Positions 18,628 through 28,880 of a stretch of 64,000 nucleotides of DNA are shown here, one piece after another. Below the pieces are notes generated by a model. The model made no database searches and was not told the origin of the DNA. It saw only the letters and a program-made list of their open reading frames with translations. A program made the position numbers and the translations under genes. The stretch's first letter is position 1, and the number at the start of each line of letters is the position of its first letter. This DNA is from a virus: the UHGV virus genome UHGV-0168042, one strand, 5' to 3'.

Positions 18628-20289
18628 ATGAGTGAGGCAGAAGCCCGCCCGACTAACTTTATTCGTCAGATCATCGATGAAGATCTGGCCAGTGGTAAGC
18701 ACACCACAGTACACACCCGTTTCCCGCCGGAGCCGAATGGCTATCTGCATATTGGTCATGCGAAATCTATCTGCCTGAACTTCGGGATCGCCCAGGACTA
18801 TAAAGGCCAGTGCAACCTGCGTTTCGACGACACTAACCCGGTAAAAGAAGATATCGAGTACGTCGAGTCGATTAAAAACGACGTTGAATGGTTAGGTTTT
18901 CACTGGTCTGGTAACGTCCGTTACTCCTCCGATTATTTTGATCAGCTCCACGCCTATGCTGTTGAACTGATCAACAAAGGCCTGGCGTATGTTGACGAAC
19001 TGACGCCGGAACAGATCCGCGAATACCGCGGCACCCTGACGCAGCCGGGTAAAAACAGCCCGTACCGCGATCGCAGCGTTGAAGAGAACCTGGCGCTGTT
19101 CGAAAAAATGCGTGCCGGTGGTTTTGAAGAAGGTAAAGCCTGCCTGCGTGCGAAAATCGACATGGCGTCGCCGTTTATCGTGATGCGCGATCCGGTGCTG
19201 TACCGCATTAAGTTTGCTGAACACCACCAGACTGGCAACAAGTGGTGCATCTACCCGATGTACGACTTCACCCACTGCATCAGCGATGCGCTGGAAGGTA
19301 TTACGCACTCTCTGTGTACGCTTGAGTTCCAGGACAACCGTCGCCTGTACGACTGGGTGCTGGACAACATCACCATTCCTGTTCACCCGCGCCAGTACGA
19401 ATTCTCGCGCCTGAATCTGGAATACACTGTGATGTCCAAGCGTAAGCTGAACCTGCTGGTGACCGACAAGCACGTTGAAGGCTGGGATGACCCGCGTATG
19501 CCGACCATTTCCGGTCTGCGTCGTCGTGGTTACACTGCGGCTTCTATTCGTGAGTTCTGCAAACGCATCGGCGTGACCAAGCAGGACAACACCATTGAAA
19601 TGGCGTCGCTGGAATCCTGCATCCGTGAAGATCTCAACGAAAACGCCCCGCGCGCAATGGCGGTTATCGATCCGGTGAAACTGGTCATCGAAAACTATCA
19701 GGGCGAAGGCGAAATGGTCACCATGCCGAACCATCCAAACAAACCGGAAATGGGTAGCCGTCAGGTGCCGTTTAGCGGTGAGATTTGGATCGACCGCGCC
19801 GATTTCCGAGAAGAAGCTAACAAGCAGTACAAACGTCTGGTGCTGGGTAAAGAAGTGCGTCTGCGTAATGCTTACGTCATTAAGGCTGAACGCGTGGAGA
19901 AAGATGCCGAAGGTAATATCACCACCATCTTCTGTACTTATGACGCCGACACCTTAAGCAAAGATCCGGCAGATGGTCGTAAAGTGAAAGGCGTTATTCA
20001 CTGGGTGAGCGCGGCACATGCGCTGCCGGTTGAAATCCGCCTGTACGATCGTCTGTTCAACGTGCCGAACCCAGGTGCTGCGGATGATTTCCTGTCGGTG
20101 ATTAACCCGGAATCGCTGGTGATCAAACAAGGCTTTGCTGAACCGTCGCTGAAAGAAGCGGTAGCGGGTAAAGCATTCCAGTTTGAGCGTGAAGGTTATT
20201 TCTGCCTCGACAGCCGCCATTCTACGGCGGAAAAACCGGTATTTAACCGCACCGTTGGACTGCGTGATACCTGGGCGAAGTTAGGTTAA
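18628..20289 (+). CDS. glnS: Glutaminyl-tRNA synthetase (class I, HIGH/KMSK)
   Basis: 553-aa translation matches E. coli GlnRS along its length from recall ([24 protein letters not shown]..., HIGH at [17 protein letters not shown] motif); only the last residues appear to differ. Confidence 0.95.
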
Positions 20290-20314: not shown

Positions 20315-20340
20315 AAACGCCGCTACTGCGGCGTTTTTTA
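20315..20340 (+). terminator. Rho-independent terminator after glnS
   Basis: aaacgccgctactgcggcgtttttt. Confidence 0.7.
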
Positions 20341-22632
20341 CTTCATTATTGCAATTATATCGTTAGCAACTACACGTGTTGACGCCTTGCAGGAAACCGA
20401 CCGTCTGGCTGCCATATGATGTACTTTAAACCCGTTTCCTTCATATAGTTCACGGATGTTTGGTGCACCACTATTTGTAATCACTACCTTAGCGCCGCGC
20501 TGGTGGGCTTCCACCAATAGAGATACCAGCCGTTTCTGTTCGTCGAAACGGAAGCTATTTCCTGAATAACTGGTAAACCCTTCTGTATCCGGCAGCGGTT
20601 CATACGGCGGATCGCAAAAAATCACATCTCCTTCACCAGCCGCCTCGATGACGCCAGCAAAGTCACCTGATACAAAGGACGTGTTTTTGAGTACGTCATC
20701 AGCCAAAAATGCCTCCATCTCTGCATGTGGGAAGTAGGGCGCTTTGTATTTGCCATACCCCACGTTGAACTCGCCATTTTGGTTGTACCGCGTTACGCCA
20801 TTAAAACAGTGCCGATTAAGGTACAAAAAGGCGGCAGCATGATGTAGCTGGTCATACTTTCCTCTGTTAAATGCCTCACGCACTTCGAGGTAAGCGTCAG
20901 CGTTGTTGTAATTTTGGAAAAAACTATATGACAGCGTGACGAGCGAATGTCCTTCTCGCTGCAATGTCTGATAGAAGTTAATCAGGTCACCGTTAATATC
21001 ATTAAGCAGGTTGTGGCGAAATCCTGCATTCGTAAATACAGAACCGCCACCAACGAACGGTTCTATTAACCGCTTGCCGTGTGGTAGATGCTCAAGCACT
21101 GTAGGCAACTCTGAGAATTTACCGCCTACCCATTTGAAGATCGGACGCTCATATTCATCCGGAGTCCGGAGTTTTCTTGTGTAGGTAATGGTATTTATTG
21201 TTTTTGGCTGTTTAGCTTCCACAGTCGCAAGAATGCGACACCCAATCCATTGCATAACAGGAACTGCCATGCTGTTGCCAATCGCTTTGTAACGCGGCCC
21301 GTCAGCAGCGAGCATCGCGGCCTCTTCTTCGCTTAAATCTGGATAGTGATTGCGAAGGTATGCCAGTTCATCTGAGGAAATTGTTTTACGCTTTTCCGTA
21401 GGGATCAACGTATGCCCATCAGGAAAACCTTGCAGCCTTTCACATTCGACAGGGGTAAGACGGCGGACAGCTACTTCTGCGTTTCTTACTTCATAGCAAA
21501 CGGCTGTTGGATTTTGAGCCATTAGAGATGGTGAAGTATTCTTAGTTGCAGCATGTTGTGTACCGCTCATACGCTCAGGAAAAGCTAATGTAACAAGATG
21601 CTCATGGCTTTCTTGCTCACGCGCCCGCAATGTACCATGCCCCTCTGACCAAAAACCTGCTCCTGTGCTGCTAAAAACGGCAAGGTCAGTGGCATCTTTA
21701 AAGTCTCTTGCCTTTACTGTCGATGCGGTTTCATCGTCAATATATTCCCCAAATGCCGCCATCCTGAAAGCGTTTACGGCTTTCGTCGATTTCATACCGG
21801 GGGGCATGTCAGCGTGTAGGCATGGATTTAGGCTTTCGCCACTGATTGCAGCGCCATTTGCAATAATGGCGGAAGCGATTTCCTTCTTTTTTCGGCTCGG
21901 CGCAATATTCCGGCGCACGCCTTCGAACTCAAAAAGTATCGTTGCGGGATCGAGGTCTGTTCGAGCACTTGCGACAACAAACACGCGTCGGCGTCGTTGC
22001 GCCACTCCGAAGTATTGGGCATCAAGGATTCTCCAGGCCACTTTTCGCTGCGGTCCATAAATACAACCACACTGCGGCCACTTTGGAGCATGGCAACTGG
22101 TTTTGACATCCCACCGCCAGAACGCGTTACTTTTTCGCGATTCAGGTCGAGCACCTGGTTCGAATGGCGCATCTTCTCCAGCCAATCCGGCAAGGAAACA
22201 TCCGAAGGCGTTATCTGCCGATGACAAGACTCCTGGGACATTTTCCCAGACGATAACGGCTGGTTTGAGAAATGACTCAGCCCGTTTGTCGTCAATTGCA
22301 TTTGCAAGCTCCACATACTTTAAAGTTAGCGCGCCACGCTCATCATCAAGCCCACCACGTAATCCAGCGATACTGAATGCCTGACAAGGTGTTCCCCCGA
22401 CGAGCACATCAGGGGATTCGATTTCCCCAGCCAGGACTTTTTTGGCAAGTTTTGTCATATCGCCAAGGTTGGCGACATGGGGCCAGCGGTGCGCAAGAAC
22501 GGCAGATGGAAAAGGCTCGATTTCAGCAAACCACGCCGGACGCATACCCAACGGTTCCCAGGCAATGCTCGCTGCTTCAATTCCACTGCAAACTGAACCA
22601 TATCTAAGGTTAACGTTCTGCTTCACCACCAA
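20338..22632 (-). CDS. dmt: Bifunctional DNA methyltransferase: N-terminal C5-cytosine MTase domain fused to C-terminal Dam-like N6-adenine MTase domain (P1 Dmt-like)
   Basis: C5-MTase motifs GSVCSGIE (I), [12 protein letters not shown] (IV), ENV (VI), QRRRRVFVV (VIII), GNSMAVPV (X); then Dam-type KWVGGK, NRHCFNG and CDPPYEP. Confidence 0.85.
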
Positions 22633-25208: not shown

Positions 25209-25976
25209 TCACCCCATAGATATCGAGGTTTCGGTAATAATACGTTTTGCGTCCAACTCCCATGCTGTGATCACGTCTGTAATCACACTTATCGGCGCTT
25301 GTGTGGCATAAATACGCTCTTCTCCAATTGGTGCTGAAACATCCGTAAAGCCGACTTCTTTGGCATCCTGTATCGAGCAAATCAGCGGGACCGGGACACG
25401 AACAAGGTGAGTGGTTGCTTCAAATTGTGTACCTGTCATCAGGCGAAGCCGTGCGCCCAGCGAATTACACATCAGACTCATGGTCGCTTTATCAGTTGCC
25501 ATTAACGTAACGTCATACGTCAGAATGGCCTGGGTGTATTCCAGTTCTGCTAAAGGCATTCCGGTATCTGGTTCGCAAAAACTGGCTACTTTTTTGCGGT
25601 CAATCTGCTGATCATCGTTGATATAATTGATATCCATAGTGCGTGAGATATTGACCAGGGGGAGAGCATCCCGGTTAATGTTCTGGTTTTCAGGTTTTCT
25701 CCCTTGCCCGGCATTTGCGCGACGAACTGCTTTAAGAAACTCGATCGCATTGTCGAAACGGGCCATATAGACACGCTCTGCTGGTGGACGATTCAGGAAT
25801 GACGCAAAGCGTTTTTCTTCCGGCGCGGGGGCCACCAGTAAGATATCAGAAAAAATGTTGCTGATTAGCGTCGCAAACGCGTTATCCACGTTTTCAAAGC
25901 CCGTGGTCTGGAATTTTCCTGTGCGTAAGGTTTGCCATTCACCGGTTCGCGCCAGGAGGGTTTTATTTGAAGTCAT
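25209..25976 (-). CDS. Hypothetical tail/baseplate protein (255 aa)
   Basis: Complete ORF in baseplate run. Confidence 0.45.
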   Translation of the reverse strand: MTSNKTLLARTGEWQTLRTGKFQTTGFENVDNAFATLISNIFSDILLVAPAPEEKRFASFLNRPPAERVYMARFDNAIEFLKAVRRANAGQGRKPENQNINRDALPLVNISRTMDINYINDDQQIDRKKVASFCEPDTGMPLAELEYTQAILTYDVTLMATDKATMSLMCNSLGARLRLMTGTQFEATTHLVRVPVPLICSIQDAKEVGFTDVSAPIGEERIYATQAPISVITDVITAWELDAKRIITETSISMG

Positions 25977-26776
25977 TCGATCACTCCGTTTTGAGTCGTA
26001 TCAAAATTTCTGGCAGGTATGCAGTAGTAAAGCGAACCAACATGCTGTGTGCCGTAGCTAAAAATACGGTGCACGTACCACCAGCGGCGGGCTACGCCGT
26101 TTACCATCTCTTCATTCCATTCAAGAATTGAGCCGACGGGGACGTTATTTGCTGCAATACGCAGAATCAGAACATCATCGGTTAAGCCATCCTGCTCACC
26201 GTCTGCGTCAATCGCATGGAAAGAGTCACGCCCGTCAGGGTTATCCAGCACATAAACGATTTCAGGTTCCTGGTAAGTCAGTTCGCGTTGGTTGTTATCC
26301 AGTTCAGTGAATGACTCTTCTCCTGTTTCGTCGCTGACTACCCCATATGTGCCAACATCTGGTCGATATAAGAGAGCCTGAAACGCGTCTGGGCTGGATT
26401 CAATAATCAGCATCCAGTCTGCGCGGATTTGGTCGTTAAAGGCTTTATGCCCGTTATAGCGTGCTTTTAACTGTGGAGTCGGTTCTCTCCCAGCCAGGGA
26501 AGATGGAAGTATGGCTATATCTGATTCGCCAGCATCCGAAGTAAGGCCACCGTTGCTATCAGCAAAATTATCATGGCTATCAGCTTTGGCGGCGGGTTGC
26601 TCTTCCAGAATGCTGAATGAATCCGAACCGGTATTGCCATGTTCCGGCGCGCCTCCTGCATTCGCTTCAATCGGTGCTGGCGTTTCTCTCTGCGTGCTGT
26701 CATGTTCTGACTCCTTACTTGCCAGGTTTGCATCGTCAGCAAACCATTCGTCAAAACGGCCCATAAGCATCCTCAA
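25973..26776 (-). CDS. Hypothetical tail/baseplate protein (267 aa), acidic
   Basis: Complete ORF, 4-nt overlap with downstream gene. Confidence 0.45.
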   Translation of the reverse strand: MRMLMGRFDEWFADDANLASKESEHDSTQRETPAPIEANAGGAPEHGNTGSDSFSILEEQPAAKADSHDNFADSNGGLTSDAGESDIAILPSSLAGREPTPQLKARYNGHKAFNDQIRADWMLIIESSPDAFQALLYRPDVGTYGVVSDETGEESFTELDNNQRELTYQEPEIVYVLDNPDGRDSFHAIDADGEQDGLTDDVLILRIAANNVPVGSILEWNEEMVNGVARRWWYVHRIFSYGTQHVGSLYYCIPARNFDTTQNGVIE

Positions 26777-26926
26777 AGGTCGATCTGTCAGGTATCGAAA
26801 GGAAGATTTTCGGGAGATTGTGATTTTGGATGAAGGAGGGGGAATTCATAAAATGCACTTGCGCACAGTGCAACAGTGCGCTATAGTTATGGCATTCGGT
26901 AATCATCACGGAGGATCAAATGACTA

Positions 26927-27229
26927 ATGACCAAAAAAATTAACATAAAGGATTTCAGGGATGCGTGGCTTGATGATTTTTTTGAATTTTCAACACCACA
27001 TAGAAAGATACCTCCTGATATTCATATGACATTGTCACGGAAGTTGGACATTATCAATGCCGCAACTACCTGTAAGGATTTAAGATCACCACCAGGTAAT
27101 CGGTATGAGGAACTGTCAGGGAAGCTAAATGGCTATTCATCAGTAAGGGTGAATAAGCAATATAGGTTAATTTTTAAGTGGGTTAACGGAAAGGCCGAGG
27201 ACTTGTATCTCGACCCTCACAAATACTAA
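26927..27229 (+). CDS. higB: HigB-family toxin (RelE/ParE fold, plasmid maintenance killer protein)
   Basis: 100-aa protein with C-terminal pattern (YRLIFKWVNGKAEDLYLDPH) resembling HigB toxins; toxin-first gene order typical of hig loci. Confidence 0.75.
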   Translation: MTKKINIKDFRDAWLDDFFEFSTPHRKIPPDIHMTLSRKLDIINAATTCKDLRSPPGNRYEELSGKLNGYSSVRVNKQYRLIFKWVNGKAEDLYLDPHKY

Positions 27230-27299
27230 AACAGATACCCGGTTACGGACCGGGTTCTGACCAGAGTCCACTTAATACGCACGCTAGTAAGGGCAAAAA

Positions 27300-27638
27300 A
27301 TGAAACAGGCAACCAGAAAACCGACGACCGTAGGTGATATCCTGCTGTACGAATACCTGGAGCCGTTAGAGCTGAAGATCAACGAGTTAGCAGAAATACT
27401 TCATGTTCATCGTAACACCGTAAGTGCTCTTGTTAATAATAATCGTAAGCTAACGATGGATATGGCATATCGCCTGGCAAAAGCATTCGATACTTCTGTA
27501 GATTTTTGGATTAATCTCCAGACCGCAGTAGACCTGTGGGAAGTCGAAAATGACATGCGCGTTCAGGAAGAGTTAAGTCGTATCAATACTGCTGAAAAAT
27601 TTATTTCTCAGCGGAACCTGAATAAAAAAGCAGCCTGA
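27300..27638 (+). CDS. higA: HigA antitoxin (XRE-family HTH)
   Basis: HTH segment INELAEILHVHRNTVSALVNNNRKLTMDMAYRLAKAFDTSVDFWINLQ matches the HigA antidote family. Confidence 0.8.
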   Translation: MKQATRKPTTVGDILLYEYLEPLELKINELAEILHVHRNTVSALVNNNRKLTMDMAYRLAKAFDTSVDFWINLQTAVDLWEVENDMRVQEELSRINTAEKFISQRNLNKKAA

Positions 27639-27673
27639 TATAGTAAAACACATACAAAAAGCCCACTTAACAA

Positions 27674-28054
27674 GTGGGCTTTCCTTTGGAATTAATGAAC
27701 ATTAAAACTATCCGTACAGAACAAGATTATGAGGCCGCACTGCGTGCGGTAGAACCGATGTTCGATAACGAACCGGAAACGAACACCCCGGAAGGTAATT
27801 TCTTGGAGGTTATGTGTCTTCTCATTGAGGAGTACGAGAAAAAACATTACCCAATTGAGCCGCCATCACCTATTGAAGCCATTAAATCCCGTATGGAATA
27901 GCAAGGGTTGACCGTGAAGGATCTGGAACCGGCGATTGGTAAGTCAAATCGTGTTTACGAAGTGCTAAATGGGACACGAAATTTAACGTTACCTATGATT
28001 CGTCGTTTACATTCCCAGTTTGGCATTCCTCTTGAAAGCCTAGTTGGTGTTTAA
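27674..28054 (+). pseudogene. Second HigA-like antitoxin gene interrupted by an in-frame TAG at 27899-27901
   Basis: N-terminal 75 aa (IRTEQDYEAALRAVEPMFD...) and, in the same frame after the amber codon, the HTH part (QGLTVKDLEPAIGKSNRVYEVLNGTRNLTLPMIRRLHSQFGIPLESLVGV); intact homologs carry a sense codon there. Confidence 0.5.
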
Positions 28055-28114
28055 GTTTGGCAGTCTGGAGGGCCGATTTTACATAAAATCAAGGTTTAAA
28101 TATTTGGTGATTAT

Positions 28115-28855
28115 ATGAGCACTGATTCATCAATAGAAAAGGAAAATGAAAAATCATCCGCCCAAAATCTGATAGAAGATGCTGTAAAAGATAAGTTGTT
28201 TAATAAGGTTTTTGCCTACATTTTTATTTCATTTTTAATTTCTAACTGGCGAGATATATTTATATTGTTGAAGTCAAAAGATGATGTTATGTATACATTA
28301 TCTATGGTGTTTGTTGGGGAAAAGATTCCATTATTTGGGAATGTTTTTGTACCCTCATTCGTAGCTCATTTTGTCTTGCCTTTTATTTATGGTGTTGTGG
28401 CTTCAATATTAGCCCCAATGTTAACTTTACTAATTTCTATGGTGACTGGCACAATATACGCTAAATTGAGAGAGATAGATAAAATTGAAGACAAAAAAGA
28501 ACAAGTAAGAAAAATTAACAGAGACATTAATGATCTTACTAAGAAACGGAAAGACGTTGAAGAGCGTCTTGAAAAAGAAAAAGAAGAACATGAATCATTA
28601 AAAAGAAAGGTAGAAGAAGTTAGGGAACAGATTGAATGTGTGGATAGCGATATCCGTCATGTTATTAAATTATATAGAGAGAAAGGTGAGAGCTTAAATT
28701 CGTTGGATGATTTTTATGAATTTTTTACTGCCGTGAAAAACTCATCTTTTCGTTCGGGTGATACAAATGACAGGGAGACACTTGAGGAGATTCTCTCAAA
28801 GCTTTCTGATTCACTTGAAAAAATTAAATGCGATGCTAATAAAAAGGTGGGATAA
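28115..28855 (+). CDS. AT-rich membrane protein with N-terminal TM helices and C-terminal K/E-rich coiled coil (candidate exclusion/abortive-infection-type protein)
   Basis: 246 aa; hydrophobic segments VFAYIFISFLISNW and FVLPFIYGVVASILAPMLTLLISMV, then a long charged coiled coil; markedly lower GC than neighbours; followed by a hairpin terminator. Confidence 0.55.
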   Translation: MSTDSSIEKENEKSSAQNLIEDAVKDKLFNKVFAYIFISFLISNWRDIFILLKSKDDVMYTLSMVFVGEKIPLFGNVFVPSFVAHFVLPFIYGVVASILAPMLTLLISMVTGTIYAKLREIDKIEDKKEQVRKINRDINDLTKKRKDVEERLEKEKEEHESLKRKVEEVREQIECVDSDIRHVIKLYREKGESLNSLDDFYEFFTAVKNSSFRSGDTNDRETLEEILSKLSDSLEKIKCDANKKVG

Positions 28856-28880
28856 ACCCACCTTTGTTAATTTTTTATGT
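28844..28880. terminator. Bidirectional hairpin terminator between convergent genes
   Basis: aaggtgggataaacccacctt followed by a T run. Confidence 0.5.

Follow-up and report, generated by a model that had tools for sequence, protein, structure and literature searches.

The DNA analyzed here is a 64,000-nucleotide viral stretch, referred to below as the window. Sequence matches of the region place it among the E. coli phage-plasmids that are D6-like and P1-related, with phage D6 itself at 97% identity. The features under study (Table 1) lie at an accessory-gene site flanked by homologues of P1 tail genes 7 and 25: an intact toxin-antitoxin (TA) pair, a stem-loop, a second HigA-like antitoxin gene interrupted by an in-frame amber codon, and a homologue of D6 orf73. 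Plasmid pGF60-C is 100% identical to the window over a 1.2-kb stretch and only about 92 to 98% identical elsewhere (whole-window BLAST), and the two are thus distinct; contig JPXJ01000019.1 of GCA_000773555.1, the same as IMG/VR UViG_2681813421_000002, is identical to the window.

Table 1. Coordinates, strand, and supporting evidence for features of the amber-split antitoxin locus and for the tRNA cluster of the window
Feature	Position	Strand	Evidence or remark
Swapped-in cassette: own promoter region, PF05015 higB, TIGR02607 higA, hairpin	26828..27694	+	Alignment with pTB423
HigB-like toxin of the resident TA pair, 100 aa, intact	26927..27229	+	Pfam PF05015, E = 4.4e-35
HigA antitoxin of the resident TA pair, 112 aa, intact	27300..27638	+	NCBIfam TIGR02607 antidote_HigA, E = 7.9e-30; Pfam HTH_3
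Stem-loop rich in G+C, then a T-rich tract; resembles a terminator on both strands	27659..27684		Between resident higA and the orphan gene
Orphan K-12-type HigA antitoxin pseudogene (phage D6 orf72 homologue)	27695..28054	+	119 codons; read-through translation
Residual 68-codon N-terminal ORF	27695..27901	+	Two-helix hairpin, linker, and one HTH helix
In-frame amber at codon 69, CAG>TAG	27899..27901	+	Q69 in 119/120 family representatives
D6 orf73 homologue, 246 aa	28115..28855	+	phrog_8191 (unknown function), E = 1e-74
tRNA cluster	59999-62066	-	Met/Ile2(cat) 59999-60074; Thr(tgt) 61912-61987; Arg(tct) 61990-62066

The frame opened by GTG 27674 or ATG 27695 ends at the TAG and then stays open in frame to a TAA at 28052-28054. 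Translation from the ATG gives MNIKTIRTEQ...SRME, the amber codon, and then QGLTVKDLEP...SLVGV, and in this read-through product residues 63-115 match Pfam HTH_3 (E = 8.9e-6), bearing out the original prediction that the frame runs through an amber codon into a complete helix-turn-helix (HTH) domain. That prediction had given the N-terminal fragment 75 amino acids by starting at GTG 27674, the ORF finder's start, which falls inside the upstream hairpin. Homologues of the gene begin with MNIK or MQIK, that is, at the ATG, and homology between the window and the toxin-paired relatives described below also begins exactly at ATG 27695; the real start is therefore the ATG, and the shortened product is 68 aa long rather than 75.

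The adjoining higB-higA pair is intact, as had been proposed from the sequence; in relatives the toxin is annotated as a RelE/ParE family toxin (WP_000162415.1) and the antitoxin is WP_000806445.1. Between this pair and the orphan gene lies the stem-loop, which has a stem of 13 pairs, a predicted RNA fold of -15.7 kcal/mol (z = -3.0), and a hit on the minus strand in a terminator scan. No promoter better than chance was found for the orphan gene, and its expression is presumably low.

Across D6-like plasmids the site as a whole (26828-28860, between the homologues of P1 genes 7 and 25) is an accessory-cassette hot spot, and its contents vary: it carries either a PF09907 higBA or a PF05015 higBA pair, with or without orf73 variants and with or without IS elements. 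A second PF05015 higB/HTH pair lies ~1.5 kb further on in pGF60-C, L018, L020, and other loci; the window has none. The product of the orf73 homologue is hydrophobic in its N-terminal half and a coiled coil in its C-terminal half, and searches against Pfam, NCBIfam, and PADLOC returned only coiled-coil noise. This gene is itself a variable cassette, with alternative alleles in D6, p98205, and pE2863-2; it is missing from pF719-4, pTB423, and some amber loci and is split by a DDE transposase in L030. We considered whether orf72 and orf73 form a two-gene system and rejected the idea, as toxin-paired orf72 copies occur both with and without orf73; because the presence, absence, or replacement of orf73 is independent of the state of orf72, orf73 is not the antitoxin's partner. 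Two further observations concern other parts of the window. The equivalent, in related loci, of the 764-aa ORF at 20338-22632 (-) contains both PF00145 (C5 DNA methylase) and PF02086 (D12 N6-adenine methylase) and is therefore a fused double methyltransferase, which in several relatives is split into genes of 301 and 226 aa. Positions 1-187 give staggered, self-similar BLAST matches to pGF60-C at an offset of 75 nt, which suggests a short tandem repeat within the large "transglycosylase" gene.

The read-through protein has 4,536 homologues at an E value of 1e-5 or below, mostly of 119 aa; among the best 120 of the 4,536, lengths run from 113 to 134 aa, and 77 are exactly 119 aa long. The closest solved structures by sequence (phmmer versus PDB) are the HigA proteins of E. 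coli K-12 and Shigella, 5ifg and 5ycl (E = 6e-9, residues 6-112). In the AlphaFold model (pLDDT, 91.5) of a family member with 90% identity, two helices (9-23 and 32-51) make up the N-terminal part and five (59-70, 74-81, 84-91, 99-109, and 113-117) the HTH part, and the best Foldseek matches of this model in the PDB are again E. coli/Shigella HigA chains (6kml_B, 6jq4, 6kmq_B, and 5ycl_A, over about 120 columns). The alignment of homologues that the original prediction had proposed as a check shows CAG (Gln) at the amber codon in relatives, and position 69 is Gln in 119 of 120 cluster representatives; with TAG here, the difference is a single C>T transition, and the antitoxin-like gene is indeed split by one nonsense codon. 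The amber lies where the first HTH helix (59-70) ends, and the other four HTH helices are therefore lost.

On Kluyvera chromosomes and in Salmonella lambdoid prophages, the 119-aa homologues lie 4 to 5 nt 3' of a 100-aa PF09907 HigB_toxin gene, and this chromosomal and prophage order, PF09907 higB followed by higA, is the canonical toxin-first higBA arrangement. The orphan gene is a descendant of this K-12-type HigA family: it resembles solved HigA over its full length in both sequence and fold. Its frame is interrupted within the HTH by the TAG at codon 69, near-invariant residues have been replaced (T5, N35, L37, and S65), and a cognate PF09907 HigB gene directly upstream, present in relatives, is absent from the window. 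Compared with E. coli K-12/Shigella flexneri HigA (YgjM) of the HigB(YgjN)-HigA module (5ifg, 5ycl, 6jq4, 6kml, and 6kmq), it has the same N-terminal hairpin and five-helix HTH but only ~30% identity, with 119 aa against 138 aa, and in the window it lacks both a HigB partner and an operator region and is cut short at codon 69. The 90% protein cluster represented by P0001 mixes 119-aa HigA antitoxins with unrelated 100-aa PF09907 HigB toxins; this is probably a clustering artifact, bridged for example by fused or overlapping gene calls.

A precise replacement is visible upstream of the orphan gene. In the alignment with pTB423 (L038), the left junction lies at ...GGAGATTGTGATTT (about 26827) and homology resumes exactly at ATG 27695, so that the 867-nt cassette of the window (26828-27694) stands where pTB423 has ~380 nt of promoter/operator and PF09907 toxin gene; the promoter/operator region of pTB423 is absent from the window. 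No PF09907 HigB homologue was found upstream of the orphan gene or elsewhere in the whole window (tblastn with pTB423 HigB; best E value, 0.49), in keeping with the earlier description of the gene as an orphan. Five D6-like plasmids (pTB423, pEP91B-2, pKOr024_2, FDAARGOS_1059 unnamed1, and MINF_7C plasmid 4) carry at the same site a "HigB family toxin" and an intact 119-aa antitoxin, the toxin (e.g., WP_021551810.1) ending 3 nt before the antitoxin. Since the PF09907-HigA pair is also the arrangement found outside the plasmid family, we infer that this pair is ancestral, that the PF05015 cassette was the incoming one, and that the toxin half was displaced.

The state of the orphan gene was surveyed with a 421-nt query (27640-28060) against 93 complete E. 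coli genomes with a D6-like plasmid. Query coverage was at least 80% in 42 of the 93 records and below 80% in 51. In some of the 42, homology starts at query position 56, which is exactly the ATG, and the five of these that were examined are the toxin-paired plasmids; in the remainder of the 42, the gene is preceded by the PF05015/TIGR02607 pair, the order also seen in D6 and the window. Orphan copies have been disrupted by at least three independent routes. One is the amber allele of the window and pGF60-C. Another is replacement of the 3' part after codon 61, which joins the gene to a different downstream cassette and reduces it to a stub of 66 aa (MNIK...PPSPVESFNYP); nearly every one of the 51 low-coverage plasmids, about half of the complete ones, is of this kind, with the match ending at query position 238 in 32/60 records of an evenly spaced sample, and PHROGs has a 66-position family of its own for the stub (phrog_10398). 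The third is an IS3 insertion at about codon 35 in pMTY12355_3. All toxin-paired copies examined (5/5) are intact; disruption in the orphan context set against intact paired copies is what one would expect of an antitoxin required only beside its toxin. Many orphan copies are nevertheless still intact, and some encode the same protein as the toxin-paired allele (WP_021551809.1); rapid loss is thus not an inevitable result of orphaning, and intact orphans could have an anti-addiction role.

The amber codon is not the only change in this allele. Private changes, called against five intact D6-type alleles, all fall within 27707-27908 and comprise P5T, M29T, D35N, F37L, and F65S in addition to the nonsense change at Q69; the synonymous changes are at V19 and L72, with T31 and P56 added only by a wider comparison. 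Four of the five substitutions strike strongly conserved residues: across the 120 family representatives, P stands at position 5 in 110 and T in none, D at position 35 in 118 and N in none, F at position 37 in 118, and F at position 65 in 119 and S in none. The description of the gene as otherwise intact thus does not hold. Differences among intact alleles are mostly synonymous, and the five private amino acid changes therefore indicate relaxed constraint. The private changes are also clustered, with 10 in the 214 nt of 27695-27908 and 10 in the other 1,947 nt of 25900-28060. We considered positive selection on the N-terminal half and rejected it: there are five nonsynonymous and four synonymous changes, a ratio raised relative to intact alleles but not above 1, and the presence of four synonymous changes points instead to an older diverged segment set in recombined flanks. 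As far as the sequences indicate, such a mosaic origin is the likeliest cause of the N-terminal clustering, which uniform drift would not predict.

The allele is fairly common. Its exact products are recorded on 174 contigs as the 75-aa form with the GTG start and on 28 contigs as the 68-aa form, 202 together, and the 68-aa product has been deposited as a "transcriptional regulator" (KGT11642.1 and KGT21831.1). An identical haplotype over 27327-28041 is shared by at least 21 loci taken from independent assemblies (NCBI, ENA, and Logan), and the complete RefSeq plasmid pGF60-C has the allele as well. The flanks of these loci vary: orf73 is present or absent and in one case carries an IS, the second downstream PF05015 higBA pair is present or absent, and identity to the window falls to about 93%. 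It is nonetheless in the minority, both among complete sequences (1/93 complete E. coli plasmids; 0/109 PLSDB records) and by contigs per allele, where it stands at ~200 against at least 1,000 and 899 for the two commonest intact protein alleles, counts that include toxin-paired copies. An exact-pattern scan of GTDB contigs, with one genome per species, gave no match. Occurrence of the same allele in independent assemblies with varied flanks shows it to be neither a sequencing error nor a private, recent mutation. The original prediction had suggested a recent pseudogene; if recent is taken to mean private, this is contradicted by the ~200 contigs, by flanks differing by up to ~7%, and by the presence of the allele in a 2014 assembly. 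That this contig acquired its TAG through a sequencing or assembly error is extremely improbable and is refuted by the independent assemblies: its only support is the general expectation that single-base errors occur, whereas the haplotype is identical in 21 loci drawn from isolate genomes, metagenomes, and read-set assemblies, recurs in complete pGF60-C, and links the TAG to seven further allele-specific substitutions.

Exact protein look-up for an unbroken progenitor or a revertant, with residue 69 set in turn to Q, W, Y, K, E, L, or S, gave a match for Q only. This 119-aa Q69 protein (P0151) was rejected as a progenitor, as the ENA metagenome contigs that encode it (L043, 268-627; L044, 145-504) carry TAG; since both have TAG despite the Q69 entry, the gene caller must have applied a code that reads TAG as Gln. 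Some metagenome gene calls thus produce spurious "intact" entries that mimic progenitors, and caution is warranted.

Nothing in the window points to suppression or recoding of TAG. No suppressor tRNA (anticodon CUA) was found there by ARAGORN, which identified only tRNAs for Arg(tct), Thr(tgt), and Met/Ile(cat); pGF60-C has an extra tRNA-Ser(tga), not found in the window by ARAGORN, and this is no suppressor either. TAG is the stop codon of 6 of the 62 long window ORFs, and ORF pairs that could be joined across a stop show no excess for TAG (22, versus 45 for TAA and 50 for TGA). Stop reassignment would be marked by a CUA tRNA or by many genes with in-frame TAG, and neither is seen. An exact supE tRNA is present in 155/5,424 complete E. 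coli genomes, and among the matches listed, 40/40 are K-12 laboratory derivatives. The 553-aa ORF at 18628-20289 (+) corresponds to a gene annotated glnS (glutamine--tRNA ligase) in pGF60-C and in many D6-like phage-plasmids; an aminoacyl-tRNA synthetase is unusual on a phage-plasmid, and glnS on Salmonella D6-like prophages has been remarked on previously (PMC6799933). We considered whether the plasmid glnS is tied to the Gln-to-amber change and dropped the idea, because the gene is found throughout the D6-like elements regardless of allele and a CUA tRNA is lacking; no link was seen.

We consider it probable that the gene is an antitoxin left stranded when its K-12-type higBA module was displaced, that the CAG>TAG change inactivated it, and that it is now a pseudogene. 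The site would ancestrally have held a PF09907 HigB toxin gene followed 3 nt on by the 119-aa HigA. A self-contained cassette of PF05015 toxin, TIGR02607 antitoxin, and hairpin would then have taken the place of the old promoter/operator and toxin gene, its right junction falling exactly at the start codon of the old antitoxin and stranding it. With no toxin to neutralize, no promoter or operator of its own, and a hairpin in front, the stranded antitoxin would have become dispensable and begun to decay; in the window haplotype, decay would have taken the form of the amber at codon 69, which would remove four of the five HTH helices, together with the conserved-residue substitutions, and function has presumably been lost. 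The original prediction had offered a pseudogene or an N-terminal fragment acting alone, and a pseudogene is the best reading. Several observations sit less easily with it. The allele is fairly common and occurs on diverse backbones, which either hitchhiking and recombination or selection could bring about; the private changes are concentrated in 27695-27908, unlike uniform drift; and many orphan copies remain intact. Moreover, the amber (codon 69) and the replacement (codon 61) both drop the HTH and keep a 66- to 68-aa N-terminal ORF, which could hint at retention, although the 5' part is spared in the latter case because the replacement comes from the variable downstream cassette side.

These last points bear on the idea that the 68-aa N-terminal peptide is functional, a predicted DNA-binding-free hairpin that would bind PF09907 HigB toxins and act as an anti-addiction or anti-defense "sponge," which we regard as unlikely. 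Its targets would be at hand, as PF09907 toxins circulate in sister plasmids and prophages, and in the AlphaFold model the N-terminal helices (9-23 and 32-51) form a unit apart from the HTH (59-117). In the E. coli/Shigella HigBA structures (5ifg and 5ycl), it is presumably this N-terminal part of HigA that contacts HigB. Two independent truncations keep an ORF of 66 to 68 aa, the 66-aa form being the majority state in complete plasmids, and the amber allele occurs on about 200 contigs; orphan antitoxins have also been proposed as anti-addiction modules (PMC7354431). What weighs against a working peptide is the nature of the substitutions: P5T, D35N, F37L, and F65S are nonconservative and hit near-invariant N-terminal residues, the opposite of what conservation of toxin binding would leave. 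The peptide gene also lacks its own promoter and has a strong hairpin ahead of it, and the IS3 insertion at codon 35 in another plasmid indicates that the N-terminal part is dispensable too. Deletions that enter from the variable downstream cassette account for the surviving 5' part, and nothing speaks positively for solo action of the fragment. That HTH loss was itself selected, with two lesions at one domain boundary yielding a peptide that soaks up rival PF09907 HigB toxins, is quite improbable; if it were true, the HTH-less peptide would disarm the addiction or exclusion systems of rival D6-like plasmids or prophages without disturbing transcription.

We rate as very improbable a leaky, down-tuned allele, in which a full-length antitoxin with Gln69 would be made by read-through in a supE-type host or by a near-cognate tRNA-Gln. 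The change is from Gln (CAG>TAG), and supE (glnV CUA) would restore the native residue; after the TAG, the C-terminal half has no amino acid change relative to intact alleles. Gln is inserted at UAG at a low level even in suppressor-free E. coli, and the 155 complete genomes with supE include phage D6's laboratory host, C600. In natural isolates with the allele (chicken meat and metagenomes), however, supE is not expected, because the supE genomes listed are all K-12 laboratory derivatives, and the element itself has no suppressor tRNA and the window no sign of TAG recoding. Any read-through product would keep the four damaging substitutions and would find neither cognate toxin nor operator, and the two full-length Q69 database entries are gene-caller artifacts whose DNA has TAG.

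The inactivated, stranded antitoxin can be set beside several known systems. Phage D6 orf72 (ASR76362.1, "HigA family addiction module anti-toxin") is its ortholog at the same position, with ~94 to 95% identical DNA; it too follows the same PF05015 higB/TIGR02607 higA pair and precedes orf73, but it has CAG at codon 69 and keeps P5, D35, F37, and F65, where the window gene has TAG and five substitutions. The PADLOC profile PD-Lambda-2_B matches the whole read-through protein (E = 4e-42), although only over profile positions 1-119 of 402, the HigA-like part, the window protein ending at residue 119. Component B of PD-lambda-2 combines a HigA-like HTH with a C-terminal peptidase domain in a three-gene operon (Vassallo et al. 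2022, PMC9519451), and in it, as in the window gene, a HigA-like HTH module follows a HigB-like gene; lacking the peptidase domain and any such operon, the window gene does not belong with component B. Orphan antitoxins have mostly been interpreted as degraded TA systems, with anti-addiction modules also proposed (PMC7354431). The orphans of that review are likewise toxin-less, derived from a formerly complete module, and carried on a mobile element; compared with them, the cause is visible in the window, where the toxin gene has been precisely replaced by a TA cassette, and the decay states can be seen side by side.

Part of this was already known. RefSeq/PGAP treats the identical sequence of pGF60-C as a pseudogene, named "type II toxin-antitoxin system HigA family antitoxin" and flagged "internal stop," D6 orf72 is annotated as a second HigA, and orphan or degraded antitoxins are an established phenomenon. 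The amber-split gene is an ordinary pseudogene, a case of ordinary gene decay in a well-known antitoxin family. The locus is a tidy example of TA turnover, in which one cassette displaces a toxin and the stranded antitoxin erodes by nonsense mutation, deletion, and IS insertion; that all stages are visible within one plasmid family makes it a neat illustration rather than a surprise. The plasmid family could serve as a natural experiment on the anti-addiction value of orphan antitoxins.
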